Of a stretch of 64,000 nt of DNA, positions 25,830 to 54,218 are shown one piece after another. The position numbers were made by a program, and so were the translations under genes. The notes beneath the pieces were generated by a model that did no database searches, had not been told where the DNA came from, and worked only from the letters and a program-made list of their open reading frames with translations. This DNA comes from Myxococcota bacterium (lineage in GTDB: Bacteria; Myxococcota_A; UBA9160; SZUA-336): positions 736,001 through 800,000 of the forward strand of contig CBDFGR010000002.1 in assembly GCA_965247115.1 (NCBI GenBank), given 5' to 3'. Every line of letters begins with the position of its first letter. Within the stretch, counting starts at the first letter, position 1.

Positions 25830-25928
<99 letters not shown>

Positions 25929-28450: not shown

Positions 28451-28471
28451 CTCATTCCGCGGAGCGGCACC

Positions 28472-29569: not shown

Positions 29570-29579
29570 ACTTATTTGC

Positions 29580-29608: not shown

Positions 29609-29614
29609 GAGGCT

Positions 29615-30496: not shown

Positions 30497-30505
30497 GGCA
30501 GTACC

Positions 30506-30668: not shown

Positions 30669-31078
30669 GGTATCCCATCGTCGTCCACAAGGACGAAAGG
30701 AGCTGCTACGGCGCTACCGTGCCGGATCTTCCTGGCTGCTTCTCGGCCGGAGATACGCTGGACGAGGCGATTGAAGCCGCCCACGAGGCAATCGCTTTTC
30801 ACCTTGAGGGCTTGCTCATGCGGGGCGAGCCGATCCCCGCACCATCGCCGCTGGAGGTACACCAAGCCGATGAGCATCTCGCCGACGGAGTCTTCGCGAT
30901 CGTCACCGTTGACATCTCGAAGCTCTCGAGCAAGGCCGTGCGAGTCAACATCACGGTTCCAGCCCGCGTGCTCGCGATCATCGATGAAGCCGCGTCGCGG
31001 GAAGGAGAAACGCGCTCCGGGCTGATGACGCAGGCGGCGCTCCGTTATGTGGAGCAACAGACGAATGAGGGCAGGTGA
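30665..31078 (+). CDS. hicB: HicB antitoxin
   Basis: YG.TVPDLPGCFSAGDTLDEA; C-terminal RVNITVP ribbon-helix-helix. Confidence 0.93.
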   Translation: MRYPIVVHKDERSCYGATVPDLPGCFSAGDTLDEAIEAAHEAIAFHLEGLLMRGEPIPAPSPLEVHQADEHLADGVFAIVTVDISKLSSKAVRVNITVPARVLAIIDEAASREGETRSGLMTQAALRYVEQQTNEGR

Positions 31079-31244
31079 GCCCATTCCAAAACCGCTTCAC
31101 CGCTACTCCGTGGTAGCCTGACCGTATGACCCCGGACGAGTCTGCGCGTCCCAACAGGAGACCGCTACGGAACTTAGGTTCCTCCCCAAGGCGAAAACGC
31201 GGAGCTAAGTCTGGCCCCTCCGACTCAGAAAGAAGACCCACACA

Positions 31245-31320
31245 ATGAAGAAGAAGGAAATGGAGGCACTCGAGGCCGACGGTTGGGGGATCGGGACCTC
31301 CCAAGAGCTCCTGAACCTCT
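31245..31320 (+). pseudogene. N-terminal fragment of an XRE-type antitoxin/regulator
   Basis: MKKKEMEALEADGWGIGTSQELLNLS resembles the 'LE..GW..G....FL.LS' N-terminus; similarity then stops. Confidence 0.4.
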
Positions 31321-31399
31321 CGGGCGGACCATCGTGGGACTGCAACGGGTGGAGGGCAAGCGTCTCATGCTCCGGCCACCCAAGTCGGTCAGGGGCTAG

Positions 31400-31518
31400 A
31401 TGGCGGACAAGCAAATCACTGCTCTGATCGTTCCACAGGGCAAGATACTCGACTTCATCGACAACAAGCTCCGAAAGGAGACACCGGAAGAGTACGTCCG
31501 GCAGGAGATCGAGAAATC
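31400..31518 (+). pseudogene. N-terminal fragment of an HsdR_N/N-6 methylase-type restriction protein
   Basis: GKILDFIDNKLRKETPEEYVRQ. Confidence 0.6.
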
Positions 31519-31800
31519 GCCTGCAGGCTTCTTGAGATCTTCGATGCAGACCAATGTGATATCGCAGTGCTGGTGACTGGCGACACGGATCTAGCCCCTG
31601 CCGTGCGGACTGCCCAAGCTCTCTATCCTGAGAAATCGATCTTCTTCGCATTCCCCTTCGCAAGACAGAACCAAGAACTCCAAAAGCTGATCCCGGGACA
31701 CACGTTCAAGCTTAAGTACCCTCGCTATCTCCAGCACCAGTTCCCCGATCCACTGGTGCTACCAGGAGGCCGCGCGCTCACAAAACCCGCACGCTGGTAG
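31516..31800 (+). pseudogene. C-terminal fragment of an NYN-domain ribonuclease
   Basis: IACRLLE...CDIAVLVTGDTDLAPAV...FAFP...QFPD...KPARW. Confidence 0.7.
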
Positions 31801-31822
31801 AACTGGCCTGTGCGCTAAGTAC

Positions 31823-33502: not shown

Positions 33503-33759
33503 CGTTACGAATCCCTTACAGGATGAACGGATGCGGGGGAGAGCGCATGAATGGCGGCATTCATATCGCACGCGGTTACCCGAGGCGCAACACCTTGGTG
33601 TCGCAATACTCAGAGGAAGCCTGCATCTTGTAGGGCCAAACCTTCGTAGTACAACATGCGCAGGTGCCGAGTGCGTCCAGCCCGCACGGAAGGGCACTAA
33701 GACCGCTGGCCTCATCCCGACAGGTCGAGCTGGAGCTCGCGCGGGTGTGGCGACTGTGA

Positions 33760-33875
33760 GCCGGGAGGGCGGCTCGGGAAGCGAAGCGCTGGGGCTTCGA
33801 GCGCATCATCACGTACACCCTTGAGTCAGAAGCGGCCACGTCGCTCAAGGCTTGCCGGTGGACGCCGACGGTGTG
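33760..33875 (+). pseudogene. Fragment of an XF1762-like phage protein
   Basis: AKRWGFERIITYTLESEAATSLKACRW. Confidence 0.45.
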
Positions 33876-33959
33876 ATTCGGGGAGGGTCGTGGAACTTGC
33901 AAGCGACGATGGGAAAGGGAGCCCGCTACCTGTCGGTAGTCCGCGATCTGAAAGTCTCG

Positions 33960-34015
33960 TTGATTTACACCTTGACAATAGACTCCGAATTGTTGATAAT
34001 CAGAGTGTAAATCAA
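33960..34015 (+). promoter_or_regulatory. Sigma70 promoter bracketed by an 11-bp inverted repeat
   Basis: TTGACA(33972)-17 bp-GATAAT(33995); ttgatttacac / gtgtaaatcaa on either side; AAGGAG Shine-Dalgarno. Confidence 0.75.
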
Positions 34016-34027
34016 GGAGTGCAGACA

Positions 34028-34459
34028 ATGCAGATCAGGGAGATAGAAATCCGCTATCGAGTCCGGGGAGAGGTCGAGGATCAGCTGCGGAATTCGGCGC
34101 AGGTCGCCGCCGCCGTTCGGCGCATCGTGGGTCACGACCCGAGGGAGCACCTCTGCGTGCTCTACATCGACGCGCGCCACAGGATATTGGACGTGGAGAT
34201 CGTCTCGATTGGGACCCTGACCCAGTCCCTCGTCCATCCCCGCGAGGTCTTCCGTACAGCGATCCACCGCTCCGCTCGTGGCATCATCATCGCGCATCAG
34301 CACCCGTCAGGAGATCCGACACCATCCGACGAAGACTACGAGGTCACACAGCGGCTGATCGATGCGGGCAGCATCCTCGGCATCGAGGTCCTCGATCACG
34401 TGGTCGTCACGACCAGAGACTTCACATCGCTGCGGGAGCAGCACCCCGACTGGTTCTGA
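34028..34459 (+). CDS. RadC-like JAB-domain protein
   Basis: VHPREVF, AHQHPSGDPTPS.ED, LDHVVV. Confidence 0.92.
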   Translation: MQIREIEIRYRVRGEVEDQLRNSAQVAAAVRRIVGHDPREHLCVLYIDARHRILDVEIVSIGTLTQSLVHPREVFRTAIHRSARGIIIAHQHPSGDPTPSDEDYEVTQRLIDAGSILGIEVLDHVVVTTRDFTSLREQHPDWF

Positions 34460-34560
34460 TTAGGCTCGATGGCTCGCCGGGGAAGGCAGGGCTACCGGTG
34501 GCCCTTTTGATTTGCAGATGGTAATTCTTACGCTAGGAGTGCTAGAAGAGAGGGGAGAGC

Positions 34561-34791
34561 ATGAGAGGCGGGCAGACGATGGGGGGCGAGTACCCGAAGC
34601 CGCGGGGTGGCCTAGTGGACGCCGCAGCTGGATCGGAACTCCGGAAACCAGGAGAGAGCTATGCTGCCGCAATCAAGCGCCTGGGGCGCGAAATCATCGA
34701 GCTAGAGCTCGAGGCGGCAGGCGGAGATCGGAAGCGCACGGCGCGCGCTCTACGCCTCACGATCGAAGAGCTCGAGGAAGAGCTCCGCTAG
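34561..34791 (+). CDS. Small hypothetical protein, possible Fis-like HTH
   Basis: Shine-Dalgarno present; LEAAGGDRKRTARALRL resembles a Fis-type HTH. Confidence 0.45.
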   Translation: MRGGQTMGGEYPKPRGGLVDAAAGSELRKPGESYAAAIKRLGREIIELELEAAGGDRKRTARALRLTIEELEEELR

Positions 34792-34802
34792 GGAAGGGCC
34801 CC

Positions 34803-35015
34803 GTGGGGACGAAGAAGGCGAGGCGCGGTGGAAACCGGCCGGGTGCGGGGAGGCCTCCAAAGCACCCGAGCGGACGGAGCGAGCAGGTGAGCATTCAGCT
34901 GCCGCCGCCCGTACTCGGTGCATTGCGCAAGGAGGCTGAGGCGCAGGGGAGGAGCCTTTCGGACATCGGGGCAGAGATCCTCGAGCGGAGCCTGAAGCGG
35001 CGCGGACGGCTCTAA
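34803..35015 (+). CDS. Small DNA-binding protein (AT-hook-like plus ribbon-helix-helix)
   Basis: RGGNRPGAGRPPK; VSIQLPP....L...A...GRSLS. Confidence 0.6.
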   Translation: MGTKKARRGGNRPGAGRPPKHPSGRSEQVSIQLPPPVLGALRKEAEAQGRSLSDIGAEILERSLKRRGRL

Positions 35016-35120
35016 GGATGCGACCCGCGCGTGTCGCTTGTGAACTGGAGGAGTATCCCGAACCCTTGTGCGCTCCTTGCGATTTGGCAGCTCCATCACG
35101 GCCCGTGGTAGCCTGACCGT

Positions 35121-35200
35121 ATGACCCCGGACGAGCCCGCGCGTCCCAACATCCTCTACTACGGTGACAACCTCGACGTACTCCGGCGGTACGTGAAGGA
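35121..35200 (+). pseudogene. N-terminal fragment of a DNA methyltransferase
   Basis: PNILYYGDNLDVL matches PNVLYYGDNLEVL of the intact MTase at 31823-33502. Confidence 0.75.
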
Positions 35201-35240
35201 AAGGACGAGGTGGCTGGAGGCGACTCGGGAGCTGATTAGA

Positions 35241-35308
35241 GAAAACCCGGGGATGCACGCATCCCCGGGGTGCCAATTGAAAAACCCCGGGTTGCACGCA
35301 ACCCGGGG
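35241..35308. repeat. Two tandem perfect 11-bp-arm palindromes
   Basis: cccggggatgc-ac-gcatccccggg and ccccgggttgc-ac-gcaacccgggg, period 39 bp, each preceded by gaaaa. Confidence 0.85.
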
Positions 35309-35468
35309 GGGTCAAAGAGTGCCGGCATGCTGAGTATCGGCAGTCTCATTGGGAAAATCAATGCGAAAAGCGGCCTTCTTCATCGACGGAAGCACGGTGA
35401 GGCGGTAGAGTCGGCCTTGCTCCCCGAGGAAGAGGCTAAGATACACGATACGACCACGGCGTTGGCGC

Positions 35469-36134
35469 ATGAAAAGAGACACGAAGATGTCCAACTGCCC
35501 ACCTTTTTTGATCCTGCTACTCATGCCGCTGCTTGCGGCCTGCATCACCAACACGCGCGAGAACGACTTCCCGCGCGCAACGCTGCTGGGCGTCGATTCG
35601 CCGCCGTCGATCGAGACCGCGGTGACGGACTTCAACGCGCACCTGGATGGCGGCAAGCTAGTCAGCTCCCATGCCCAGGGGCGCCTCCAGTTTTCACAGA
35701 TGACCCGACGCTGGCAGAAGCGGGGTGCAATTTCGGGTGCGGAGTTTCGGCGCGACGAAGATTGGACGGGCGAGTCCGATTCGTATGTGGTGATGTCTGG
35801 ACGGCAAGTGGGACGTTCGAGTATCGCTCTGCAGATCCTCTCGGGGCTGACGCTGACGCTGATTCCGTACTACGTCGACACCACGAGCGAGCTGGAGTTC
35901 AAGCGGCAGGATGCAGCGACAGGCGAAGTGACCGCCGCTCACGCGAAGATGCGCACGTACCAACTGGTATCGCTGCTGTTCTTGCCGTTCGCGCCCTTCA
36001 GCCTGGCGGGCGATATCCGCCAGGCGAACATGCTTGCGGACAGCGTCTATTGCCAGCTATGGCGTGGGGAGGGCTGCGAGTCCGCCGAGCCCGGCTCCAA
36101 GGGATGGAGGGTCGAGCCACGAGCAGCGGATTGA
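35469..36134 (+). CDS. Hypothetical lipoprotein
   Basis: Lipobox LAAC; LSGLTLTLIP hydrophobic segment. Confidence 0.7.
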   Translation: MKRDTKMSNCPPFLILLLMPLLAACITNTRENDFPRATLLGVDSPPSIETAVTDFNAHLDGGKLVSSHAQGRLQFSQMTRRWQKRGAISGAEFRRDEDWTGESDSYVVMSGRQVGRSSIALQILSGLTLTLIPYYVDTTSELEFKRQDAATGEVTAAHAKMRTYQLVSLLFLPFAPFSLAGDIRQANMLADSVYCQLWRGEGCESAEPGSKGWRVEPRAAD

Positions 36135-36222
36135 CATCCACCCAAGGCATTTGGACTTAGTAGGAAGGGCGTTGCGCGGGACCCCATCGAGGACCCTGCG
36201 GAGATAAAGCGCATCCTCAAGG

Positions 36223-36534
36223 CCGCTCGGGAACATCGACACGCCTGAGGACGACGAGGTCGGCTACTACCAGGCGGCCGAGGCGCTCCGCCAGATGGCC
36301 GAAGACAGAGCGATCTACTTGGTCTACGAAAACCCCTACACGCTGAGCCGCGGCCGCTTCGGGCGACTCCTCGCGTACCCCTACGCGGACGGCGTGAACC
36401 TGAACCTGGAGATGGTTCGAGCCGGCTGGACGCCGTTCTACACGAAGTACGGTGTGGGCCGCTTCCCGGCCGCGTTCATGCAGGCGGAGGCGGAGGCAGC
36501 GCGGGCGCGCCGCGGGCTCTGGTCTCATCAGTGA
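36223..36534 (+). pseudogene. Thermonuclease (SNase) fragment lacking the N-terminus
   Basis: IDTPE, FGRLLAY, NLEMVRAG, ARRGLW; in-frame TAA at 36205. Confidence 0.75.
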
Positions 36535-36568
36535 GGGTCCCGACAGCCTGCGGAGGCGACGCAGCTGA

Positions 36569-37087
36569 TTAGTGAGAAGGTCGCCTGTACAGGTACTCGA
36601 ACACGGCCCGCACTATCCAGAGCACAAGCCAGATACCCGCGACGGTCCCCCCGGCCGCCTTCGAGACGAAGGCCATCATGAAGGCAGCAAAGGCGAGAAC
36701 ACCGACTCCTAGATAGAGGTTGTGCTTCTGGCCGATCGTCTGAAGGCCTCGAACCTCCTTTTGGTCGGCGACCTGAGCCTCGAGTTGGAGCTTCTCCATC
36801 GCCCGAGCGTGCTCTCCGTTGGCGCGGAACTCATCGTGAATGGCCTCAGCGAACTCCGGAAAGGCGTCCTTATAGCCGCGCATCTGCTCAGGAGAAGGCA
36901 TGTGGGCCCACTCCAATACGGCCTCACCACTGCCATCCTCGCTTCTGCGGACCCCAAGTCGTCCACCCGGTCCGCGTAGCCCTTGATCGACCGGTTGCTG
37001 CTCGGGCGGAGGAGGTACGAGCTCCGCCGTCTCTACAGCAGGCTCATCGACGACGCCTTCTTCGGAGTCAGCCCGCTCGTCCGGCAT
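36569..37087 (-). CDS. DUF2335-like membrane protein
   Basis: MPSPEQMRGY....P..A..I......GEH followed by two TM helices. Confidence 0.65.
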   Translation of the reverse strand: MPDERADSEEGVVDEPAVETAELVPPPPEQQPVDQGLRGPGGRLGVRRSEDGSGEAVLEWAHMPSPEQMRGYKDAFPEFAEAIHDEFRANGEHARAMEKLQLEAQVADQKEVRGLQTIGQKHNLYLGVGVLAFAAFMMAFVSKAAGGTVAGIWLVLWIVRAVFEYLYRRPSH

Positions 37088-37914
37088 ATGCGGGGAGACT
37101 CGCTAAGGGGACTTCGGGGTGTTGCTCGGCGGCTGCCCGAAAGGCCGCTGCCGCCTGCTGTCCGGTCTGCCGTAGAGTGGCATGCGTATCCGACCAGGCA
37201 TTGATCACGCTCGCACGTGACACGAACTCGAGACCGGGCGGATCGAAGTACAGGGGACTAAACAGCATGGCTCCTCCAGAGAGCCACGCCCGTCGCCTAT
37301 TCGCTCGTCGCAGACCAGACATGGGGGTCACATCCAGCGGGGGATCGAAAGTTGCTGCTTGGTTCGTCGAGAAGATACACGTACTGGGCGAGGTCACGGA
37401 CCTGCGTCCGATCCTGACAGATCGAGACGCTCCTGGTCTTGCGACGGCGCGGCGCTCAGCGCGCTTGGGCATACAGACTCCCCGTGGGCCACGATGCTCG
37501 GCCCGTCTCCCCTCGATACCGTCTCTTCGGCAGATTGGGCCTAGCGAGTGAGCGGAGTGTAGCACGGCCGCCAAGGGCTCTTCGTGGCGATTTCGCTTCA
37601 TCTCATCAGGAGATTTCCCCTTTGGCTGCCGGGGTTTTGCGCGTCTGTGAATGGACTGGGTGGCATTCCCTATATCGCCACGACAGCCCTGCAAAAAGTG
37701 GGCGGGATCGCCCTGGCCGACAAGGGCAGCAAACGCCGCAGACCTGCGCATTTGGTTCTTGTTTTCTCTCCTCATATGAGGTGGAAAAAGAGGAACCACC
37801 CGGGTGGTTGGGGCCATGAGTGCACGAAAGCTCGCACCATCCGCGCTCAAGGTTGTCTAGCCAGCCCGCACGGCAGGGCACTAAGACGGAACTAGGTACT
37901 TAGCGCACAGGCCA

Positions 37915-39322
37915 GGGTGACGTCCGGGGTTTGCTGGAAACAAAGGGGGGATGCAACCTCGCGTGAATCAAACAAAACCCGCCGGACCTTCCGGCCACGC
38001 GAGGAGACATCCCCTTGGCAACGAGAGTACTGAGCAGCGAGAGGACGAGCCAGAAGATCCGTGAGCTGATCCAGGAGCTGGAGGAAGGAGACGGCCTGGA
38101 GGGGCTGCTCCAGCTCGCGATGCGCAAGATCATCGAGGAGGCGCTGGAAGCCGAGGTCAGCGATGTCCTGGGCCGAGGCCACTACGCGCGGCGACGCGAG
38201 GGGCAAAAGGGCTACCGCAATGGATCGCGACCGGCGCGGGTGAAGAGCGCCGAAGGTCCGATCGAGTACCGGGCTCCGCAGGTGAGCGACACCGACGAAC
38301 CCTTCCGTTCCGGGATCCGTCCCGAACTCGAGAAGCGGACGCGCGCCCTGGAAGAGCTGGCGGTGGAGATGTACGCGAGAGGACTCTCGACCCGCGACAT
38401 CGAGGCCACCTTTCGAGGCGAGGACGGACGGTCCTTGCTTTCGCGGACAGCCGTGAGTGAGGTCACGGAGCAGCTCTGGGAAGAGTACGAGGCCTTTGCG
38501 ACCCGGGACCTCTCCGAGTTCAAGCTCCTGTACCTGTTCGTGGATGGCGTCGCCGAGCGCCTGCACACCGGTCAGCGTCGCGAGATGGTGCTGTGTGCCT
38601 GGGGCATCACCGACGAGGGCGAGAAGGTTCTCCTGCACCTGAGTCCGGGCACGAAGGAGGACACGGCGAGTTGCACGGCCTTCTTCCAGGACCTCAAACG
38701 TCGCGGCCTCGAGGATCCGCTCCTCGTCGTCACGGATGGAGCCCCCGGTCTGATCCGCGCGGTCGAGGAGTGCTTTCCCCGGGCGGAGCGACAACGCTGT
38801 TTGGCCCATCGGATGCGCAACCTCGCCTCCAAGATCTCCGAGCCCGACTGGCCGGAGTTTCGCGCCCACGCCAAGGCCTGTTACGAGGGACCCTCGCAAG
38901 AGGTCGCTCGTCTCCTGCGCGACGACCTGGTCCGACGCTACGAGAAGACGTTACCTACGGCCGTGCAGTGCTTCATGGATGATTTTGAAGCCTGCATCGC
39001 CCACTTGCGCTTCCCGGTAAAACACCGTCGCGTGATTCGGACGACGAACTTACTCGAGCGCCTCTTCCTCGAAGAGCGCCGTCGCATGAAGGCGGTCGTA
39101 CACGCCTTCGGAGAGCGTGCGGTCTTGAAGCTGATGTATGCTGCGTTGATCCGGAGCGCCGAGTCCTGGCGGGGCATCGCGATCAGCGCCTTTGAAGCCC
39201 GACAGCTCTCTGTGATTCGGGAAGAGCTTGACCAGAACCACGAACGCCGTCAGGCTCCCGCCATCCCGTCACGCGAAGCCAATCCCCGGTCCCGCGTTTC
39301 CAGCAAGAACCGGACGTGACCC
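37915..39322 (+). mobile_element. IS256-family insertion sequence
   Basis: 27-bp IRs gggtgacgtccggggtttgctggaaac / gggtcacgtccggttcttgctggaaac; flanks not duplicated. Confidence 0.9.
38015..39319 (+). CDS. IS256-family (mutator) transposase
   Basis: GYRNG, MYARGLSTRDI, LFVDG, VTDGAPGL, QRCLAH..RN, RTTNLLER. Confidence 0.95.
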   Translation: MATRVLSSERTSQKIRELIQELEEGDGLEGLLQLAMRKIIEEALEAEVSDVLGRGHYARRREGQKGYRNGSRPARVKSAEGPIEYRAPQVSDTDEPFRSGIRPELEKRTRALEELAVEMYARGLSTRDIEATFRGEDGRSLLSRTAVSEVTEQLWEEYEAFATRDLSEFKLLYLFVDGVAERLHTGQRREMVLCAWGITDEGEKVLLHLSPGTKEDTASCTAFFQDLKRRGLEDPLLVVTDGAPGLIRAVEECFPRAERQRCLAHRMRNLASKISEPDWPEFRAHAKACYEGPSQEVARLLRDDLVRRYEKTLPTAVQCFMDDFEACIAHLRFPVKHRRVIRTTNLLERLFLEERRRMKAVVHAFGERAVLKLMYAALIRSAESWRGIAISAFEARQLSVIREELDQNHERRQAPAIPSREANPRSRVSSKNRT

Positions 39323-39495: not shown

Positions 39496-39571
39496 GCCGA
39501 CGTAGCTCAGCTGGTAGAGCAGCTGATTCGTAATCAGCAGGTCAGCGGTTCGAGTCCGCTCGTCGGCTCCA
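39496..39571 (+). tRNA. tRNA-Thr (CGU)
   Basis: 76-nt cloverleaf; GCCGACG/CGTCGGC acceptor; anticodon loop TTCGTAA; GGTTCGAGTCC; CCA end. Confidence 0.97.
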
Positions 39572-39674
39572 GCGCTTCCAGGCACTTACGCCGGAGTCGC
39601 CCGCCCCTGGGACGCCGGAATGTAGCAACGGTGTAGCAACGGGGAGCACCTGTCCGCGCACAGCCGATGCCATC

Positions 39675-40040
39675 GTGGAGTCGCCGGAGCAGCTGCAGTT
39701 CATGCGCTGGCTCATGCACGCCGCCGCGCCCATGAAGCCCCGCGTGCCCGGCTTCAACAACGACATGGAGCGCTTCGCGGCCATAGAAGAGCTGCCCCTC
39801 TCGGACATCCGCTGTCCGACCCTGATCACGCACGGGACGGCCGACGGCGACGTACCGTTCAAGCACGCAGAGGACGCCTATCAGATCATCCCAGACTCCC
39901 AGCTCCACCGGATGGAGAACGGATGGCACCTATTGTGGCTGAGTGAGGGCGCAGACGAGATGGTCCGCAGACAGATCGAGTTCGTGAAGGCGCACTCCGA
40001 ATCGAGCCGAACGGTCAGCCAGCCCCGCGTCGGGGCGTAG
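39675..40040 (+). pseudogene. Alpha/beta hydrolase C-terminal fragment
   Basis: PTLITHGTADGDVP...GWH; no nucleophile elbow. Confidence 0.7.
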
Positions 40041-40917
40041 CCAGCACGTGGTCTTCGTCCAGGCCTTCGATGAAGTTCAGGGCGCGGCTCGAGCGGTAAC
40101 CGAGTAGCTGCTGCGCCTTCTTGGGGAGCGTGCTGGCGAGGGCGGATGGCACCGCCATGAACTGGTTCTCTTCCTGGATCAGGCGATCGAGCCCAAACGA
40201 GAAGATCAGCCCAGTGCGCGGCTCGTCGACCGCGCTCGATCCCAGCCCGTGGAACACGCTGCCCAGCCAGACGGCCACCGAGCCCTTCGGCATCACCGCC
40301 TGAATCACCTCGTGCTCCTCGGGCTTGCGGTCCCGCGGCCAGCCGTTGCTGCCCGGAACGAAGCGCGTCGCACCGTTGTCGCGCGTGAAGTCCGTGAGTG
40401 CGACCATGAAGGCCAGCGTCAGCTCCGGCCCTTCGGGATCGCGATGCCAGTAAGGCAGGTAGCGCCACTCGTCGCGGTGTAGCATCTGGTTCGCGCCGCC
40501 CCGGCACACCTGCATCGCGACGCTGGCGTTGATGTGGTAGTGGTGGCAATTGGGGCCTTTGGCGGGATCGATCACGTCGAAGAACTTCGGCTCGGGTACG
40601 GGAGTCGAAGACGACGCCATCGGGAACTCGGGAAGCAAAATCCCGTCGGCCAGCTCGAGCAGGCGCTCGTTGCACAGCAGGTGCTCGCTGAACTCCGGCC
40701 CCCGCGCGAACAGCGCAGTCACGGACCGCTTTCGATGGCCAAAGAACTCGCCGCCGCCCGGCTCCTGCTCTTCGAGCTCACCGGCCACCTTCGCAGTGAG
40801 CGTGTCCATGATCTCTGGCGCGAGCAGGTTCTCGATGATCACGAGCCCGTTCTCGCGGATCTCGGCCACGGCATCGGCCATGTTGTCGTCTCTACGAAAC
40901 CGTCGGATGGCGTTCAT
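40015..40917 (-). CDS. Phytanoyl-CoA dioxygenase (PhyH) family protein
   Basis: QMLHRD, ALTDFTRDNGATRFVPGS, GSVFHG, QEENQF. Confidence 0.9.
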   Translation of the reverse strand: MNAIRRFRRDDNMADAVAEIRENGLVIIENLLAPEIMDTLTAKVAGELEEQEPGGGEFFGHRKRSVTALFARGPEFSEHLLCNERLLELADGILLPEFPMASSSTPVPEPKFFDVIDPAKGPNCHHYHINASVAMQVCRGGANQMLHRDEWRYLPYWHRDPEGPELTLAFMVALTDFTRDNGATRFVPGSNGWPRDRKPEEHEVIQAVMPKGSVAVWLGSVFHGLGSSAVDEPRTGLIFSFGLDRLIQEENQFMAVPSALASTLPKKAQQLLGYRSSRALNFIEGLDEDHVLATPRRGAG

Positions 40918-41562
40918 GGTCGGTCTCCGTGGCGCCGCCTCCCCCGTGAGGAGCAGTCTATCGCTCTTGCGTGAGAGACTCCAAGGCGACTCCCGAGTGC
41001 CGAATCGGAGATTTCGATGTCGAGCAGTGTCGTCGCCAGAGGCCCAGCCCGCCTCTCGAGCTCGCGCCCCGGGCCTCAGACCAATCGATAGGACGGGAAG
41101 GGCCATTGTCACAACCCGAGAAACCCTCTTAAACTCCCTATCCCCCCAGGTCTTGGGTTCTGCTATCGTTCTCCGCCGAGGGGCCTTCCGATCGGCTTAC
41201 AGCTTCTGGCCTTACCCGCCTGCTCTGTTTCCCATATCGAGTTTGCCTTTCCTGCTCGTGCGCAGGGCCAGGCGGCCAACGTTGCGGGCGGTTTACATAG
41301 CGCCCGACCACCTGAGGTGGAAAGTCCGGCCCCGGAGTCTGGCGCAAATGCCGCGAACTCGAGAAGAAGGTGCGGCAGAGGAATGTCAGTTGAGTAAGAA
41401 GCTATATGTCGGAAATCTTGCCTTTTCTACCACCGAGGACGAGCTACGGGCCGCCTTCGAGAAGGGGATTATATCGCTGTTTACCCAGATTCCGATCTAA
41501 TGGGAATTAGGTACTTTGACTGAATCAACCACCTATCGAGGCTGCCGCCATGGGTGATCTCA

Positions 41563-41856
41563 TCAGCTTCCCGGGAGGCGAGTCTCATCCTCAGGACTCG
41601 GAGCAAGAAGGCGAAGAGTGTCCCGCGCCATCTGAATCAGGTCACGCCGATCCCAAAGAGAGGTCTGGGGATACTTCCCCTCCAACTTCGGATCTGGAGT
41701 CAGAACAAGAACGACCTTTCCGTCTTCTTGGGTCTGGCCGTTGTCGCTATACGCCCAAGTGGACACCTGAGATGGAACGCCAGTATTACGTATGGTTGCG
41801 GTCATATCTTCGTCAGACAGAACCTTGATGCCGCCGTCGCTACGTCGATCGGTCAT
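41563..41856 (-). CDS. Hypothetical passenger protein
   Basis: ATG with AAGGGG Shine-Dalgarno, same strand as the IS operon; an alternative + strand ORF overlaps it. Confidence 0.4.
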   Translation of the reverse strand: MTDRRSDGGIKVLSDEDMTATIRNTGVPSQVSTWAYSDNGQTQEDGKVVLVLTPDPKLEGKYPQTSLWDRRDLIQMARDTLRLLAPSPEDETRLPGS

Positions 41857-41917
41857 TTGCTCATTCCCCTTCTTGCGTCCGTCTGACTTCCTTCACGCTG
41901 TTTACCCAAGGCCCCGA

Positions 41918-42106
41918 TCACTTCCGAGCTCGTGATCCAGGCTTGAGATAGCGCCACTCGTCTTCCTTCTTCGGCGGACTACGCATCAGCGCTCGCGCGA
42001 CATTCTCCGGTGTGTCCGGGATCGGGTCGGGCATGACCAGCTTCTCCGGCCGGCCTCGGCGACGTTTCTGTTTGTTCGACTCTGACTGATTACGGTTTGC
42101 GGTCAT
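41918..42106 (-). CDS. Small basic IS-associated protein
   Basis: RRGRP...IPDTPENVARALM..PPKK...W.YL; ATGA overlap with the endonuclease stop. Confidence 0.6.
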   Translation of the reverse strand: MTANRNQSESNKQKRRRGRPEKLVMPDPIPDTPENVARALMRSPPKKEDEWRYLKPGSRARK

Positions 42107-42750
42107 CTCGACTCTCCAAAATACTGCTTCAGGAACTCAAAGACTTCACGCTTTTGCACCTCGGACGCCGACTGAACAATGGCGAAGACATTAAGCCAGC
42201 CGGTTTCATCATCCCAATAGTTCTTCTTCATGACTTGGTGACGCCCGCAAAGGGGTTGCCATTTTGTCGGGTCTTTGGGGTTAGCCTCAGCGTGAAGTGC
42301 GTGAGGCGTTCGATGGTCAGGTGTGAGTTTGACTGTCCCTCCGCCCACAAGGTCGGTATCGCCGTTACGCAAGTTGCAAGTTATGCCGCTTTCCTGCCAA
42401 GCGCACCGATCTTCGTATTGAGCTAAAACGAGTTTCCAAGTAGCTGCCGTGGGGCGTGTACGGCGGAGTGCTGTAGCTCGGCGCTCCGCGTTCGGCATCA
42501 TGTACTCACTGACCTTCAGCTCGTCTCGGTTTCGCCAAGATAGGATCGTATAACCCTCGTCGGTTCGTAATTCCGAAAGGCGTTGATGCCAGTTTTCAGG
42601 GATACGTCCCGACTCGGGGTCAGTTGCAACTTCGATCAACTGTTCACGAGTGGCCACTTTACCAGGATTATCCAGAAAGAATGCCTTGATGCGCTTCCGT
42701 ATCGACCCCTGGCGGTATGTTCCTTGAATGGTGGCATTTCTATCTTCCAT
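42103..42750 (-). CDS. HNH type II restriction endonuclease, KpnI-like
   Basis: PENWHQRLSELRTD.GYTILSWR, GGGTVKLTPDH.TPH and WQ.LCGRHQVMKKNYWD match R.KpnI as I recall it. Confidence 0.85.
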   Translation of the reverse strand: MEDRNATIQGTYRQGSIRKRIKAFFLDNPGKVATREQLIEVATDPESGRIPENWHQRLSELRTDEGYTILSWRNRDELKVSEYMMPNAERRATALRRTRPTAATWKLVLAQYEDRCAWQESGITCNLRNGDTDLVGGGTVKLTPDHRTPHALHAEANPKDPTKWQPLCGRHQVMKKNYWDDETGWLNVFAIVQSASEVQKREVFEFLKQYFGESR

Positions 42751-43507
42751 TCAAACGCCGGTGCTTTGCGATTCTTGATCGCGTCAGAGTTAGGGATTCG
42801 GGAGAATTGTCACAGAGGATTCCATTTCGCTTGAGGCGAAGGCACGCTTCGCCCGTGGTTCCAGAGCCGCACATGGGGTCAAGTACAGTGTCGTTCTCTT
42901 TGGTGGACATGGACAGCAACGGCTCAATCACCGAAAGCGGTTTTTGAGCCGGGTGGCCCGTCTGCTCTGAACGCCCAACAAATCCGATATTGAGCGACGC
43001 TTCCAGTACCGAGGAAGGGCCGGGCACAAAACGCATCTTCCCATTGTAGAAGCGTTTGAGTTGCTCCTCATTCAAGAAGTGCTCCGGGTAAACCGGCGCG
43101 TTGTCCGATGCTATGTGCAGGCAAGTATTCTGCGCTGATCTCCACCCTCTAATGACGGAAGGACAGTTCTTGTAGTACCACGTGAGCCATGCCACAAGAC
43201 CGAAACCCGATGGGATGTGAGCGATCTGGTGGGCGATAATTTCCGGAAATCCCCAGATGAAGACGTGTTCAGAAATCTTGCACGCAGCATGGATGACGTC
43301 GGTAAGCCAACCGTCATAATCTGGTCGGAATCCACCGACTCCTTTGTTGTACCAAGGGTCGAGTATGACCGCATTTACGGGTGGAACCACCGCAAGCGTA
43401 TCCAGCACATCAGCCGCCGGAAGCATCTTGATAGTTGGGCGCTTTATGCGGGGGCTACGAGATTTCCGCTGCTTTGTGGCTGACGCTTGAACCGAGCCAT
43501 CCATCAC
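42740..43507 (-). CDS. Beta-class amino DNA methyltransferase
   Basis: Motif IV variant DPWY, HPAQKP, motif I DPMCGSGTT. Confidence 0.88.
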   Translation of the reverse strand: MMDGSVQASATKQRKSRSPRIKRPTIKMLPAADVLDTLAVVPPVNAVILDPWYNKGVGGFRPDYDGWLTDVIHAACKISEHVFIWGFPEIIAHQIAHIPSGFGLVAWLTWYYKNCPSVIRGWRSAQNTCLHIASDNAPVYPEHFLNEEQLKRFYNGKMRFVPGPSSVLEASLNIGFVGRSEQTGHPAQKPLSVIEPLLSMSTKENDTVLDPMCGSGTTGEACLRLKRNGILCDNSPESLTLTRSRIAKHRRLNGR

Positions 43508-44481
43508 GTCGTCTCCGCCGACGCCCCGGTGGCCTGAATTAGATCCCGGTATCGCAGGCGCTTCCCGAACATCGCACTCGCCACGGTCCGCATCTGGTCG
43601 AGCGTGTCGTACTCACGGACGTTGTGCCGCCCGGCGAATTCGCAGACGTAGCGGTTTAGGTGCTTCGGGGACATCTTGTGATACGTCCCCTGATAGCCAC
43701 GCTTGAGCATTGACCAGAACGACTCCACGCCGTTCGTATGTGCTTGGCCTCGCACGTACTCCCCCACGCTGTGACGGACGCTCTCGCGGTTCGGATAGCC
43801 GCTGTACGCGGTCGCGTCGTCGGTGTAGACCTTCGCGCCTGGTGAGACTCGACTGGCAACGAACCCCTGGAGGGTCGCGGAGTCCGTCGCGGACACAACG
43901 ACAGCGCTCACGCGCTTTGTGGTCCGATCCTTCACGCCGACTACAGCGGTTTTGCCCACGGGTCCTCTCCCCAGCCGCAACTTCTTTCGGGCGTGTTTGT
44001 TGCGTTCCCGCCCGCCCAGATACGTCTCATCGACTTCCACCGGCCCCGCGAAGGGCTGCTCTCCACCGCTCCCATCCTGCCACACCTCACGGATTCGGTG
44101 GGCCAAATGCCAGGCCGTGCGCTGAGTGACGTGTAGATCACGGTGCAGCTTCATCGACGCAACGCCCTTGAGGTTGGTGTTCATCAGGTAGATGGCGAAG
44201 GCCCAGACCTGGTAGCCCTTCTTGGAGTTCTCCATGACCGTCCCGGTTTTGAGACTGAAATCTTTGCGGCAATCGCGGCAACGGTAGGGCTGGGGCTTGC
44301 GCGTGGGGCGCTCCTGAATGTTCAGGGAGCCGCACTTGGGGCAGGCCACGCCATCTGGCCATCGAGCCTCGATGAACCAGCGCTCGGCCGCCGCGTCGTC
44401 CGGGAACATCTTGGCCACCTCGACCATCGACAGGCCCTTACGGTGCGCCTTTCCCGGTCCCTTCTTGCCGCCCTTCGCCAT
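43504..44481 (-). CDS. IS1595-family transposase
   Basis: RWPDGVACPKCGS zinc ribbon, VEVDETYLGG, YTDD, HTNGVESFWSMLKRG..G.YH. Confidence 0.95.
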   Translation of the reverse strand: MAKGGKKGPGKAHRKGLSMVEVAKMFPDDAAAERWFIEARWPDGVACPKCGSLNIQERPTRKPQPYRCRDCRKDFSLKTGTVMENSKKGYQVWAFAIYLMNTNLKGVASMKLHRDLHVTQRTAWHLAHRIREVWQDGSGGEQPFAGPVEVDETYLGGRERNKHARKKLRLGRGPVGKTAVVGVKDRTTKRVSAVVVSATDSATLQGFVASRVSPGAKVYTDDATAYSGYPNRESVRHSVGEYVRGQAHTNGVESFWSMLKRGYQGTYHKMSPKHLNRYVCEFAGRHNVREYDTLDQMRTVASAMFGKRLRYRDLIQATGASAETT

Positions 44482-44506
44482 TCCCGGCCTCCTTATTTAT
44501 GGCGAC

Positions 44507-44535
44507 AGTTTACCCAACTAGCAGGGCGGCGTCAA
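44507..44535 (-). promoter_or_regulatory. Sigma70-type promoter for the tnp-M-R operon
   Basis: TTGACG-17 bp-TAAACT on the minus strand; AGGAGG Shine-Dalgarno before the ATG. Confidence 0.65.
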
Positions 44536-44800
44536 GGGAATCTGGGTAAACAGCGATATAATCCCCTTCGAGAAACACGGCCGCGTCGAGTCCGTGAACG
44601 TGATCATGGATCGCGATACCGGCCGTTCTCGTGGCTTTGGGTTCGTCGAGATGGACGAAGCCAGTACCGCGGACGCTGCGATGCGCGCCCTCGACGGGAG
44701 CAATCTCGGCGGCCGAGACCTCAAGGTCAACGAAGCGAACGAGCGGGGTCGCGGCGGCGGCGGCGGCGGCGGCAGAGACCGCTACTAGGTCGGGTCCAAC

Positions 44801-44842
44801 AAGGGGGGTGCGCCCGCTGCCTGGGCGCCCCCTTCGTCTTCT
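44801..44842 (+). terminator. Probable intrinsic terminator of the RRM gene
   Basis: aagggg...gcgccc / gggcgc...cccctt hairpin followed by a T/C-rich tail. Confidence 0.5.
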
Positions 44843-45089
44843 CAGGCTCACAGGAGCCAGCCGGCGCTATGACGACCAGTCCGCCGAAGGAGACCCCCCT
44901 ACGCGCTGCGATCGGCTCACGCTCACTCGCGCGCGAGTCCGGTGTAGGGCGGTGCGAAAACCAGCAGCTCAGCAAAATCCTGCACTCGCGCCGATTCTTG
45001 ACCGATCGATCCGCCGAGTCTAGGCTGCTGCGCGCTCCCGGCCCTGCGTACCGGAGCACCTGCCCGATCCGAGACGAGGGGAAAGACAG

Positions 45090-45872
45090 ATGGTACTGCC
45101 GGGACTGGCGCTCGTTCTCGCCGTGCTGTCGAGCTGGCCTCTTGCGCTCTCGATCGAGGGGCGAGTCAACGCGGAGAAGATCGCCCTCTGCGCCCGGGAC
45201 AACCGCCCTCCAGAGAACACGCTGCAGACGGTCGAGCTCACCTCGACGGATCGCCTGGGAAACGAGCTCGTGCGGCGCGCGACCGTCTACCGCGGCAACG
45301 CGCCCGACGGGGTGCGCGCCCTCTACGTGCAGCTCATCTATCCCTCGGATCTGAGCGGGTCGCGGCTGCTGCTCGCGGAACGCAACGGCCTGACACAGAT
45401 ATTCCTCGCGGTCGCCGGAACGCCGGATCTGAAGCGGCTCAACGCGCCGAGTGACAGCCCTCGGCTCTTCGATACAGACTTCTCGTCCGAGGATCTCGCG
45501 CGGCTCTACGGCATGAACAAGCCGGGGCGCTCGACGCGCCTCAAGGATGGCCAGCGCGAGGGTCGACCCACCTACGTGATCCAGACCCGTCCCTACAACA
45601 AAGAAGACTCGAGCTATGCCCTGGTCGTATCCCACGTCGACAAAGAGACCTGCATCGTGCTCAGGGTCGAGCTCTACGATCGCCTCGACCAGCTGAGGAA
45701 GGTCCTCACCGTGCCGCCGGACCACGTCAAGCAGGTCGGCTCCGTCTGGATCGCCCACGATTTCACGATGCAGGATCTCCTCGACCAGACGCAGACGCGC
45801 TTCATCGTCGAGCGTGTGGAGAGTGGAGATCGGGTCCGAGATCTCCCCTTCCCCGTCCCCGCTCCGAAGTGA
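45090..45872 (+). CDS. Outer-membrane lipoprotein-sorting (LolA-like) protein
   Basis: Signal peptide, P.DLSG..LL, LFDTDFSSEDL, VELYD....L.K. Confidence 0.75.
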   Translation: MVLPGLALVLAVLSSWPLALSIEGRVNAEKIALCARDNRPPENTLQTVELTSTDRLGNELVRRATVYRGNAPDGVRALYVQLIYPSDLSGSRLLLAERNGLTQIFLAVAGTPDLKRLNAPSDSPRLFDTDFSSEDLARLYGMNKPGRSTRLKDGQREGRPTYVIQTRPYNKEDSSYALVVSHVDKETCIVLRVELYDRLDQLRKVLTVPPDHVKQVGSVWIAHDFTMQDLLDQTQTRFIVERVESGDRVRDLPFPVPAPK

Positions 45873-45881
45873 GCCGACTCC

Positions 45882-46010
45882 CTACCAGCGCTCCCAGCGA
45901 ACGATCTCGTCCTTCGACAGCCGCGGTCGCGACTTGCGAGCTTCGCCGCTCTCATCGGGGTAGCCGAGCGTGATCACGTTCGCGACGACGTGGCTGGCTG
46001 TGATGGTGAG
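45882..46010 (-). pseudogene. Nitroreductase-like C-terminal fragment
   Basis: VITLGYPDE......RPRLS..EIVRWERW. Confidence 0.5.
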
Positions 46011-46063
46011 CGACTGGTCCATGGAGGCCAGCTCGTCCGCCGTGTGCGAAACGGTGGGCGAAC

Positions 46064-46258
46064 CACAGCCTTCGGCACTCGCCTGCAGCACAACTCGCGA
46101 CGGAAGGGTTCGCTGCGAACCTCGTCCAGGCGCAGCTCGGCCACTCGAGCCTCGCGACCACCGATCGGTATCTCCGACACATCGCTCCGCAGCAGCTGAT
46201 CGACGCGGTTCGGAGACGGGCCTGGGACGTTCGAACCCCTGCGGGCCGGGCCCTTTGA
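46064..46258 (+). pseudogene. Tyrosine recombinase C-terminal remnant
   Basis: HSLRHS...VQAQLGHSSLATTDRYL (HxxR, LGH, catalytic Tyr); no N-terminus. Confidence 0.85.
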
Positions 46259-46413
46259 CCCATTCACGGCCTGCGGCATCGAGCAGCTGCTCGCCCGACG
46301 GGGTCTGCTCGATGCAGAGGATCTCGGCTACCGGCCTCGGGGAGCGGCGGGAGCTCGCGCTGACGCTCGCATAGGCGCTGCGTCCGGGGGTTATCATTGT
46401 CTAGGAGGTCCCG

Positions 46414-47121
46414 ATGAGGAACGCTCGAAAAGCAACTCTCCTTCTCGCCACAGTTCTCATGTCGGTTCCGATCTTGAGCCAGGTCGGCTGTGCTGCAGTT
46501 CGGGGCACGGCCAGCGCATCTGACCGATCCGGGTTCCTGGGAAACTACTCGGAACTCGGGCCTCGAGAGGGGTACGAGGTCCAGGAGGTCTACATCAATC
46601 CGGACGCCGCGTGGAAGAGCTACGACTCCGTCCAGATCGACTCCGTCACTCTCTGGGTCAACGATGAAACTCAGTCTCTCGAGGACGAAGAACGCCAGAT
46701 GCTCACCGACCTCCTGTACAAGGCGCTCAACGACCAGCTGACTGAGAAGTTCAAGATCGTGGATCGACTCGGACCAAACTCAATTAGAGTGAGGGCGGCT
46801 CTCACGCAGGTGAAGGGCGCGAAGGTGGCTCTTAGGACCGTCTCCTCCATCGTCCCCGTGATGTTCGTGGTCTCTTCTGGGGTGGGCCTTTCTGGCGACG
46901 TTACGAACACCGTTGGCACTGCAACTCTTGAGGCGGAGCTCCTCGACTCCATCACTGGCGAGCGACTCGCCGCCACGGTCGATCGGCGTGCCGGTACCAA
47001 GTCGGTGCTCGCTGGGTCCCGCACCTTCGAGAAGTGGGGGGACATCCAAGCGGCCTGCGAGTTCTGGGCATTGGGTCTGACACGGACACTTGTCCGGCTC
47101 GGAGTCCAGGTCCGAGACTGA
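46414..47121 (+). CDS. DUF3313-family lipoprotein
   Basis: Lipobox VGC, SGFLGNY..L, EAELLDSITGERLA..VDRR. Confidence 0.8.
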   Translation: MRNARKATLLLATVLMSVPILSQVGCAAVRGTASASDRSGFLGNYSELGPREGYEVQEVYINPDAAWKSYDSVQIDSVTLWVNDETQSLEDEERQMLTDLLYKALNDQLTEKFKIVDRLGPNSIRVRAALTQVKGAKVALRTVSSIVPVMFVVSSGVGLSGDVTNTVGTATLEAELLDSITGERLAATVDRRAGTKSVLAGSRTFEKWGDIQAACEFWALGLTRTLVRLGVQVRD

Positions 47122-47228
47122 GTCTGGGGCGACTCACTGCCCGCACCACAAGGAGTCCAGCCCCAGGGGAAACGCGGGTGCGATCTTCTGCTGCCGAGTA
47201 CCATGTTGAGGTCGATCTAGTAAGACCT

Positions 47229-47315
47229 AGCAAGTGCGCGCCGTCGCGACTCGCGCACTCCAGGCAGAACTTGGCGTGGTTGGGGTTCTCGTGGCCGCAG
47301 CTCGCGCAGTTCACC
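47229..47315 (-). pseudogene. Double zinc-ribbon N-terminal fragment (adenylate cyclase type)
   Basis: CASCGHENPNHAKFCLECA. Confidence 0.55.
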
Positions 47316-47495
47316 AGGCTCTCGAGAGCCAACTGACCCGGTGCGCCCACCGCGGGGGTCGTCGAAGGCAGTGTGCGAAACGGTGTGCGAACTGGTCGCA
47401 ACAGGCGCAAACAGGACGAAACCAGGAGTACCGTATGTCCCCGATTTTCGTACCGCAGGCAAACAGACCGCAACGCAGCACAACGTCCGGGACGA

Positions 47496-47540
47496 ATTCG
47501 TAATCAGCAGGTCAGCGGTTCGAGTCCGCTCGTCGGCTCC
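47496..47540 (+). repeat. att site: 45-bp copy of the tRNA-Thr 3' half
   Basis: Identical to 39526-39570. Confidence 0.97.
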
Positions 47541-47772
47541 GCGATTGCAACCACTTACGCGCCGGCTCGCATAGCTCCACTCTGATCGGGAAGCATATGG
47601 GAAGCAGTGGAGCCGACCGATAGGCGCCCACATCGTGATCCCCCCCAGATGCCCCCTCCCCCCAAGACAAGGCCAGATCCGACTCGAGTTCGGTCTCGAA
47701 AATCTCCAGCAGTTATCCGGTACATGCGGTTATTCTAGACGGACCACCCGAACCCGGAGAACCGAGAACGCC

Positions 47773-48222
47773 ATGAACGTAGAGAACGCACTCACCCCGA
47801 CGGAAGAGCAGATCAAGGAACTAGCGGAGGCGGGACACGACAAGCCGATCTACATGGTCAACCTGCTCAAGTTCAAGAAGAAGGCGGAATACCCGGACGA
47901 TCGCGAGACCGATCTGACCGGTCAGGAGGCCTACGGGATCTACGGCAAGGAAGTCGCGGCCCATCTCGCCAAGGTCGGCGGCAAGGGCGTGATCGGAGGG
48001 CAGGTCACCGGGCTTCGCCTGGGTGTCGTCGAAGACCTCTGGGACACGATCGCGATCGCGATGTATCCCAACCGCAAGGCGATGCTCACCATGATCACGG
48101 ACCCCGACTACCAGAAGAGCGCCGTGCACCGCGCAGCCGGCCTCGAAGGCCAGCTCAACATCGAGATGGTGTTACTTGCGCAGGCTACGTCGCCACGGCA
48201 ACCAGATCCGACCGCAGGCTAG
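47773..48222 (+). CDS. DUF1330-family protein
   Basis: PIYMVNLLKFKKKAEYPD, WD......YP, HRAAGL. Confidence 0.85.
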   Translation: MNVENALTPTEEQIKELAEAGHDKPIYMVNLLKFKKKAEYPDDRETDLTGQEAYGIYGKEVAAHLAKVGGKGVIGGQVTGLRLGVVEDLWDTIAIAMYPNRKAMLTMITDPDYQKSAVHRAAGLEGQLNIEMVLLAQATSPRQPDPTAG

Positions 48223-48384
48223 GGTCGAACCGGGTCCACGACTCGAGCCTGTTGCCCGACGGGCATCTATGTAACAACGATGTAGCAGCGGGAACGGCAC
48301 AGCACGGCTCAACGTGGGACGGTCGCCGGCATCCAAACCCTTGATCCGGCGTCCCATGTCGTCCCGCGGCGTGCCGTCGGGGGC

Positions 48385-48431
48385 GATTCGTAATCAGCAG
48401 GTCAGCGGTTCGAGTCCGCTCGTCGGCTCCA
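48385..48431 (+). repeat. att site: 47-bp copy of the tRNA-Thr 3' half
   Basis: Identical to 39525-39571. Confidence 0.97.
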
Positions 48432-49024
48432 TGATGTCACGCACTTACGCGCCGACACCCATAGTTCCACTCCGACCGGGAAGCACATGGGAAGCAGTGA
48501 AGCCGACCCGATGGGCGCCCAAATCGCCTTGTCCGCGATCCCGCCAGATCCCCCCTCCCCCCCCCAAGGCATCGCCGGATCCGACTCGGCGTTCGGCCGA
48601 GAGAATCTCGGGCAGTTGGAGCAGAGGGCAATACGCCAGCCCGCGAGTCGTGAGCTGCGAACAACAGACCACTTCCTGCTCCCAACTAGGCACGCCGACA
48701 CAATTCCAAGTGGTCTGCAGGTTGGTAGCGGGGGAGGGATTCAACGGAAAAGCAGCAGAATTCCGGCTGTAGTCCGAGTTCCGATTGCGGCCTGACCCGG
48801 ACCCCTCGGCAGCATGAGATCGGCGTCTTCGTTGGAGCGCAAGCTCCCGGAATGTCGCTCGGTTCGAGCAGGAGACTTTGCTTGGCTGATTCGGTCACCG
48901 CCAGCCTTCCGGGCGAATTCGACCCTGTTAGAACTACCAGTTGACCCCATGGGACGGCTTGTGCTCAAGTCCACCGCCCCCAACAGACGATGGCTCGTCG
49001 CGGCATCGGATCGCAGCAAGGAGC

Positions 49025-53498: not shown

Positions 53499-54218
53499 TC
53501 ACCCAGATACACAAGCGATTGGGGGAGGGATAGGGAGTTCAAGAGGGTTTTTCGGGTTCTGACATTGGCCTTTCCGTCCGATCGAGTCGTCCGAGGGCCC
53601 GGGGGCGGACGATTCGGAAGCCAGCCAGCCGTTGCCGTGCTGAGCGGCGCGGCGCAACGCCACGTCGGCATGTCCGCCGAAAATGAAGGGTGGGTGTGGC
53701 TGGGTCTGGGGCTTGGGAGGCACGGTATAACTCCTGCCCGAATACTCCGTCACGTTGTCGTTGAACAGGCTCAGCATGATGTCGATGGACTCGTTGAAAC
53801 GCTCGCCGCGCGTGTTCCAGTCGCGGCCTACGATATCGAACTCCTCCTGCAGCCAACCGCCTCCCATGCCAAACAGGAAACGGCCGCTGGAAAACAGGTC
53901 GAGGGTGGTGACCGAACGCGCCAGATGAAACGGATCGTGCAGCGGAACGATGGAAACCGAGATGGCCAGCCGCAGAGTCCTCGTCAGGGCCGCGAGATAA
54001 GCCAGCACCGCATAGGGATCATAAAACGGTAGCTTGGAATGAAAGGCCTGATGGGCTTTGCCCCCCTCGCCACTGTAGGGATACCGGGATTCACTTGCTA
54101 CGGGGGTCACGACATGCTCGCCCAGCCACACCGAGTCGAAGCCCAACTCTTCCGCCAACAGGGCCACATCGATGATCTGCTGCGGCCGGAGGGGGAAGAG
54201 AGATACGCCAAACTTCAA
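53499..54218 (-). pseudogene. LLM-class F420-dependent oxidoreductase, C-terminally truncated
   Basis: AEELGFDSVWLGEH, TLDLFSSGRF, GW..EEF, RRAA..GNGW; similarity stops near 53615 at a repeat. Confidence 0.75.

Follow-up and report, generated by a model that had tools for sequence, protein, structure and literature searches.

How does a chromosome come to carry, in a row behind a single tRNA gene, several copies of that gene's 3′ half, set between repeat motifs of three kinds and with no integrase among them? The question is raised by a 64,000-nucleotide stretch of a Myxococcota bacterium genome (contig C2, 736001-800000; hereafter the window), in which an intact tRNA-Thr(CGT) gene, called by ARAGORN (39496-39571, + strand), opens such a row. 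The genome (G000) comprises 5.17 Mb in 3 contigs and is 98% complete. An earlier note, made from the sequence alone, read the row as a cassette-like array, built by at least three integrase lineages sharing this core, that could be excised or reshuffled in trans. Our analysis supports this reading in part only: the row probably consists of integrase-less blocks, the remains of repeated site-specific insertions by elements from three or more integrase lineages that subsequently decayed through deletions, in a tandem accretion like that of cis-mobilizable elements (CIMEs).

The reported recurrence of the tRNA 3′ half was borne out at both places within the window (cores 2 and 3, copies of the last 46 nt of the gene; Table 1), and the array was found to extend past it. 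With the intact gene as site 1, the row comprises five tRNA-Thr(CGT) cores in one orientation over 42.6 kb, two of them outside the window (core 4 at C2 808968, 46/46 identical; core 5 at C2 818066, 45/46). The spacing of the cores defines segments 1-4 of 7.9, 0.84, 24.5 and 9.1 kb, respectively. The motif CACTTACG, which we take to resemble the consensus site of integration host factor (IHF), lies downstream of four of the five cores; its three occurrences in the window (0.58 expected) are each found 10-11 bp behind a core, in agreement with the distance of about 10 bp noticed before. Two more orphan copies of the Thr 3′ half are located elsewhere in G000, off the array.

The cores are accompanied by doublets of short direct repeats resembling integrase arm sites, of three families designated alpha, beta and gamma. 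All six doublets listed in the earlier note are present at the coordinates it gives, and they do flank the sites, except for the beta doublet at 46042, which adjoins no core. At four cores a doublet lies 47-50 bp downstream; by chance, an exact doublet of at least 8 bp with a period of 10-12 occurs in 1.0% of random 80-bp windows (20,000 draws from this contig). Read as right arm, core and left arm, the five sites are (1) the tRNA followed by alpha, (2) beta and gamma, (3) alpha and gamma, (4) an unassigned arm and alpha, and (5) alpha with no left arm. The segments consequently end in alpha-beta (segment 1), gamma-alpha (segment 2), gamma-unassigned (segment 3) and alpha-alpha (segment 4). 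Like ends, all alpha-alpha, are thus limited to segment 4 and to the composites that begin at site 1 and end at either site 3 or site 5, and the left and right arms are mismatched in three of the four segments (1, 2 and 3, taken singly), which argues for deletion rather than for a cassette design.

In the lambda-type model of integration, attachment (att) arms work as left and right partners. On this model, a newcomer would recombine at the anticodon loop and restore the tRNA with its own 3′ half, followed by its own left arm, thereby shifting older elements downstream. Because newcomers would push their predecessors away from the gene, each inner junction would come to consist of an older right arm, a core and the next left arm. 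Loss of the integrase genes and fusion of neighbouring elements may have followed from deletions across former junctions, which would explain the arm pairings observed in the segments. The cargo would keep changing, probably by way of IS91-type origin remnants, other insertion sequences (ISs) and exchange with a sister species.

How many integrase lineages have used this core? The proposed minimum of three is well supported for two of them, gamma and beta, whose doublets track integrases, and is likely for the third, alpha, whose enzyme was not established. The gamma doublet (GGAAGCA) was found 35-60 bp behind a Thr core in nine of 225 genomes of the class, compared with none for the reversed-pattern control. 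In genomes G034, G092, G182 and G183 a gamma left arm lies directly behind an intact tRNA-Thr gene, and G034 contains an autonomous 19-kb element whose two ends carry the gamma motif and which encodes a 432-aa integrase combining the arm-binding domain PF13356 with PF00589. Among the loci of homologues of this P4-type integrase, 8 of 30 carry the gamma doublet, against about 0.1 expected (51 proteins matched, 30 of them with loci, one being G034 itself; the pattern also admits GCAAGCA), and several of these loci sit at Thr(CGT) pieces. The beta doublet, in a loosened pattern, is present at 9 of 26 loci of homologues of the G000 tRNA-Pro(CGG) integrase (about 1 expected; 27 loci were retrieved, one of which overlapped another), and none of the 26 contains a gamma doublet or lies at a Thr piece. 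There is almost no cross-over of the two doublets between the lineages, and the reference integrases show only 27-29% identity to each other's lineage. Judged from these sequence associations, the gamma and beta doublets are likely to be real arm sites.

Elsewhere in the genome (C3 689939-690074), a tRNA-Pro(CGG) core piece is preceded by an arm homologous to the beta right arm, so that the beta arm at the Thr core likely stems from a Pro-targeting lineage. Beta arms at a Thr core were detected in two of the 225 genomes, both of this genus. The occurrence of one arm family on a Pro(CGG) core and, in the window, on a Thr(CGT) core may reflect a switch of target.

The alpha doublet is confined, in its strict form, to two of the 225 genomes, namely G000 and its sister species G002; the loose form occurs in seven, below the reversed control of about 30 hits. 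Of eight alpha-like hits in foreign genomes, five lie beside a tRNA or tRNA piece. The strict alpha-left pattern gave nothing in metagenome or genome contigs, and a looser one revealed a single proteobacterial metagenome-assembled genome with a TGTAGCA doublet behind tRNA-Thr(CGT), on a contig that ends about 250 bp later. No PF00589 match lies beside an alpha-type arm in the five genomes checked. A tRNA-Leu integrase of G125 was considered as the alpha cognate, since an alpha-like doublet closes its element, and rejected, the doublet being present within about 1.5 kb at none of 12 homologue loci; the integrase of alpha was not found among these candidates. The recombinase scrap at 46064 was likewise ruled out as the integrase of the array, its relatives having no arm-binding Pfam domain. 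Viral contigs yielded none with both the core and the IHF-like motif; two metagenome contigs carry both, with no integrase in view.

The statement that no intact integrase is present holds for the entire array: one of the 32 PF00589 matches in the genome falls inside it, and this is the C-terminal scrap. G000 contains no match to the serine recombinase family PF07508 and none to PF13356, i.e. no gamma-type integrase, and its best matches to the gamma integrase reach 27-31% identity. The beta-type integrases of the genome, apparently intact, sit at tRNA-Pro and tRNA-Arg sites; one beta-lineage gene lies at C3 654292-655422. No beta left arm lies behind any Thr core in G000 or G002, which under the lambda-type model leaves the Thr beta arm without a partner, and a gamma right arm was not found in G000. 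Excision by a matching enzyme would be limited to pairs of an alpha left and an alpha right arm, with the integrase coming from outside; such an enzyme might possibly excise positions 39572-48431, segment 4 or the whole row.

Four further integrase genes of G000, 98-99% identical to one another, each adjoin a tRNA-Lys(CTT) gene or fragment (C1 1398, C2 278063, C3 4671 and C3 2634071), three of them near contig ends.

Read evidence was drawn from the assembled contigs of six runs, four of which come from other studies and are sediment metagenomes by record; X19 and X20 represent one sample, possibly the source, and are hence not independent. Depth was not taken as copy number, and parts without read cover were treated as uninformative. 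X19 and X20 match long stretches of the window without differences, their contigs break at the cores, and each includes a contig with a 3-bp deletion in core 2. The breaks, together with the lack of a link from core 2 to the gamma arm among the pieces listed, are what would be seen if the repeated cores were an artefact of assembly; however, each core has its own flanks, the long matches of X19 and X20 are free of differences and the same junction types recur in G002, which makes an artefact highly improbable. In X1, X7 and X12 the DUF1330 gene diverges from the window near 48173, ahead of the alpha arm, which is what a deletion fusion in segment 2 would predict. The circular att junctions and empty sites that the earlier note had proposed to look for did not materialize: among the contigs listed from the six runs there was no informative circle, excision or empty-core junction. 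A joint in X1 skipping 888 bp was not counted, as one of its sides spans just 21 letters, none of them outside the repeat. The empty site of IS1595 is present in X1, X2 and X20.

Several observations do not sit easily with accretion followed by decay. The homology between arm copies often ends 5-30 bp outside the doublet, with differing cargo beyond, and the cores stay 45-46/46 identical while the two gamma arms differ by 22%, either of which could mean that the sites remain in use or under selection. In addition, G000 encodes three beta-lineage integrases (374-391 aa) at tRNA-Pro/Arg sites that look intact. Finally, a contig of X20 at single-copy depth carries the gamma arm, DUF1330 and the core with the 3-bp deletion, followed by about 2 kb of DNA absent from the window, and a second context for the gamma-DUF1330 unit thus exists in the sample of that run. 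These points weigh against our interpretation, and all but the resident integrases would suit a maintained cassette system, in which selection keeps the arm-core-arm junctions and resident or visiting integrases move blocks in trans, unlike ends included. So would the at least six pairings of right and left arms in G000 and G002 and the recurrence of unlike ends (in G002 as alpha-beta, in G089 as gamma together with an alpha-like arm). We nevertheless consider such a system unlikely, and the proposal that blocks are worked in trans was not supported. The genome has no PF13356 integrase, the alpha enzyme was not found, the beta arm is without its left partner, the blocks range from 0.84 to 24.5 kb, three of the four have unlike ends, and no informative junction of an excision or an empty site turned up among the contigs listed from the six runs. 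The G002 junctions are spread across three contigs, in an assembly with no intact tRNA-Thr(CGT). Moreover, many arms are broken and cargo genes are truncated. In the scrap at 46042, 22 bp of the beta right arm are fused to the last ~60 codons of a small tyrosine recombinase; over 61 residues this C-terminal tail shares 77% identity with a G002 protein of 193 aa that has the catalytic Pfam domain only. A beta arm at C2 821.9 kb has no doublet. Decay is also visible in G002, where one alpha left arm has lost a repeat and one core has a 5-bp deletion. As far as sequence comparison goes, the sharp limits of arm homology favour continued use of the sites, and the broken arms and the deleted core favour decay.

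Comparison of the tRNA-Thr locus across relatives, another check proposed earlier, confirmed that arms and cargo vary in the sister species. In G002, a 95% complete genome of the same genus, seven Thr 3′ halves are distributed over three contigs, in both orientations; its tRNA-Thr(CGT) is represented by a 5′ half that breaks off at the anticodon loop, with no intact gene in the assembly. At this place (C18, L045:12778-14036) the 5′ half is continued by a 386-aa integrase; the tRNA gene may be interrupted or may have escaped assembly. The G002 junctions comprise the same arms in other pairings, plus two more motifs. Cargo blocks shared by the two species are 98-99% identical, compared with 84-90% for housekeeping genes, and one of them, the LLM block, is placed in segment 3 in G000, whereas in G002 it is bounded by an alpha-type left arm and a beta-type right arm. 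Integrase-less Thr segments with unlike ends are also present in G036 and G089, which belong to other families. In G036 (C23, L046:8452-15386) an integrase-less array of three Thr cores has gamma-type arms. The islands of G002 contain, in addition, several catalytic-domain-only tyrosine recombinases of ~200-270 aa, located off tRNA ends and related to the scrap in the window (L037:11222-11803, L039:9067-9885 and L040:17570-18199).

A repeat of about 83 bp may be involved in the movement of cargo. It occurs twice in the array, with 21 hits throughout G000 and at least 14 in G002, has sharp ends with different DNA on either side and is confined to this genus among 61 genomes examined. One copy lies ~135-210 bp 3′ of a fragment of PF04986 (IS91-type transposase); the sequence downstream of the two full IS91 transposases of G002 differs from the repeat. 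Among 15 longer copies, 7 have a tRNA or a piece of one less than 5 kb away, compared with 13% of random points, and inspection by eye found no target-site rule at the repeat ends. According to a published account, IS91 requires no more of its oriIS end than the final 82 bp, and its one-ended transposition mobilises neighbouring DNA (PMC13181058). The repeat is likely to be a minimal IS91/ISCR oriIS.

If such transposition, together with IS5 and homologous recombination, had copied att-bearing blocks as dead passengers, the order of the row would say little about the history of integration. Four of eight checked copies of the repeat in G002 indeed lie within 15 bp of the end of a block shared with G000, a block made of UPF0182, an alpha right arm and a core is scattered three times in G002, and orphan Thr cores exist elsewhere in G000. 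However, the four G000 copies all point the same way and follow directly on the tRNA, in line with accretion, and gamma left arms directly follow intact tRNA-Thr genes in the four genomes named above; we regard the passenger explanation as improbable. A related proposal, which we hold to be rather doubtful, is a two-step gene capture, in which the minimal ~83-bp IS91 origins would load chromosomal fragments of sister species between conserved arm-core junctions and passing integrases of several lineages would excise alpha-alpha or mixed composites and carry them between species. If true, the tRNA would be a shared, enzyme-free docking station in a sediment genus.

The features of the array in the window are compiled in Table 1.

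Table 1. Features of the tRNA-Thr(CGT) array in the window (positions counted from its first nucleotide)
Feature	Position	Strand	Remarks
Alpha left arm	39572-39660	+	IHF-like motif 39583-39590; TGTAGCAAC doublet 39621-39642; 95% identical to arm behind core 4
Cargo: alpha/beta hydrolase, C-terminal fragment	39675-40040	+	weak PF12146
Cargo: PhyH dioxygenase open reading frame (ORF)	40015-41112	-	true start probably near 40918
~83-bp dispersed repeat, likely IS91/ISCR oriIS end	41063-41145	-	
IS1595, 3.1 kb	41464-44567	-	splits RRM gene; passengers: DNA methylase and three unassigned ORFs
Cargo: LolA-like lipoprotein-sorting gene	45090-45872	+	87% identical to another copy in the genome
Beta right-arm scrap, 22 bp	46042-46063	+	off-core
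Small (~200 aa) tyrosine recombinase, C-terminal remnant	46064-46255	+	relatives with catalytic Pfam domain only
Cargo: DUF3313 lipoprotein	46414-47121	+	
Beta right arm	47356-47495	+	doublet 47371-47391; 88-89% identical to three G002 arms
Core 2	47496-47541	+	tRNA 3′ half, 45/46 identical
Gamma left arm	47542-47714	+	IHF-like motif 47552; doublet 47588-47606
Cargo: DUF1330 gene	47773-48222	+	sole gene of the 0.84-kb segment
Alpha right arm	48232-48385	+	doublet 48270-48290; 91-93% identical to arm before core 5 and to three G002 arms
Core 3	48386-48431	+	tRNA 3′ half, 46/46 identical
Second gamma left arm	48432-48653	+	doublet 48478-48496; 78% identical to first gamma left arm
Start of segment 3 (24.5 kb, to core 4 beyond the window)	48941-64000		genes for metabolism and regulation, several of them truncated; no recombinase
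Second ~83-bp oriIS-like repeat	53527-53608	+	overlaps 3′ end of LLM gene

The 59 ORFs surveyed in and around the array, which were picked by a codon-score filter that may miss short genes, comprise metabolic, transport and regulatory genes, ISs and fragments. Several array ORFs have relatives elsewhere in G000 at 83-87% identity, which is about the between-species divergence of the genus. An identical (100%) copy of the IS1595 is located at C3 2495932-2499035. No conjugation or mobilisation genes were detected among the Pfam matches of the filtered ORFs across the array.

A separate island behind tRNA-SeC (25830-39320) abuts the tRNA-Thr gene. It has a doublet of its own and encodes ImmA/IrrE, HicB, RadC and methylases, besides an IS1-like element and an IS256; a tRNA-SeC 3′ fragment with an integrase sits on contig C3. 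Throughout G000, many tRNA 3′ fragments (SeC, Pro, Phe, His, Met) are distant from the parent tRNA or on other contigs. Some of them are paired (Phe and Thr at C3 319.7-319.9 kb; Gly and Pro at C3 353.3-353.7 kb), and further small arrays are present at tRNA-Pro(TGG), Gly(GCC) and Leu(TAG).

A literature search outside subscription papers found no paper on this array or lineage. The architecture has already been published for other systems, and the row is an unusually legible case of a known process, in which the arm repeats record the integrase families that have used this tRNA. Arm motifs can thereby be linked to integrase lineages in an uncultured class, which is useful for the prediction of att sites. 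If the mixed-end blocks were mobile in trans, island finders based on integrases would miss a route by which sediment bacteria exchange metabolic genes.

In integron cassette arrays, gene blocks stand between repeated recombination sites, in an order that varies between relatives. In contrast to these, the present array has no intI or intact tyrosine recombinase in or beside it and no attC-like inverted repeats at its junctions; in place of attC it has tRNA halves with arm repeats, and its blocks, up to 24.5 kb long, include broken genes.

Tandem islands bounded by repeats of the target 3′ end have been described at ssrA of Dehalococcoides, 15 of them without an integration module and with metabolic cargo (PMC3146451). 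The difference lies in the machinery: a serine recombinase module acts at the tmRNA there, whereas the sites analyzed here are of the tyrosine-integrase type and located at a tRNA anticodon loop. In the Prochlorococcus islands portrayed in a preprint (bioRxiv 10.1101/2020.12.28.424599), partial tRNAs separate the elements, older elements are displaced inward by later arrivals, and the remnants include broken integrases and dispersed tRNA pieces. A tycheposon has its own integrase and a replication or packaging module. Since the array segments contain no integrase, replication or packaging genes, they are not tycheposons and share only the kind of island.

The closest likeness is to CIMEs, decayed elements that retain att sites and accumulate by accretion in the model developed for ICESt1/ICESt3, and that are described as mobile only with an incoming element (PMC7563491, PMC5704250). 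Like them, the blocks at tRNA-Thr(CGT) possess att ends and cargo but no functional recombinase, are stacked at one specific target between chimeric att sites that form direct repeats, and showed no conjugation or mobilisation genes in the filtered-ORF scan. Unlike them, the row includes no functional integrative and conjugative or integrative and mobilizable element, and it mixes the arms of at least three lineages. Cognate attL and attR, another feature of CIMEs, delimit segment 4 and the composite from site 1 to site 3, but not segments 1, 2 and 3 taken singly; because their ends are unlike, these three would be fusions rather than single decayed elements. The locus matches most features of CIMEs, with the exception of the fused segments.

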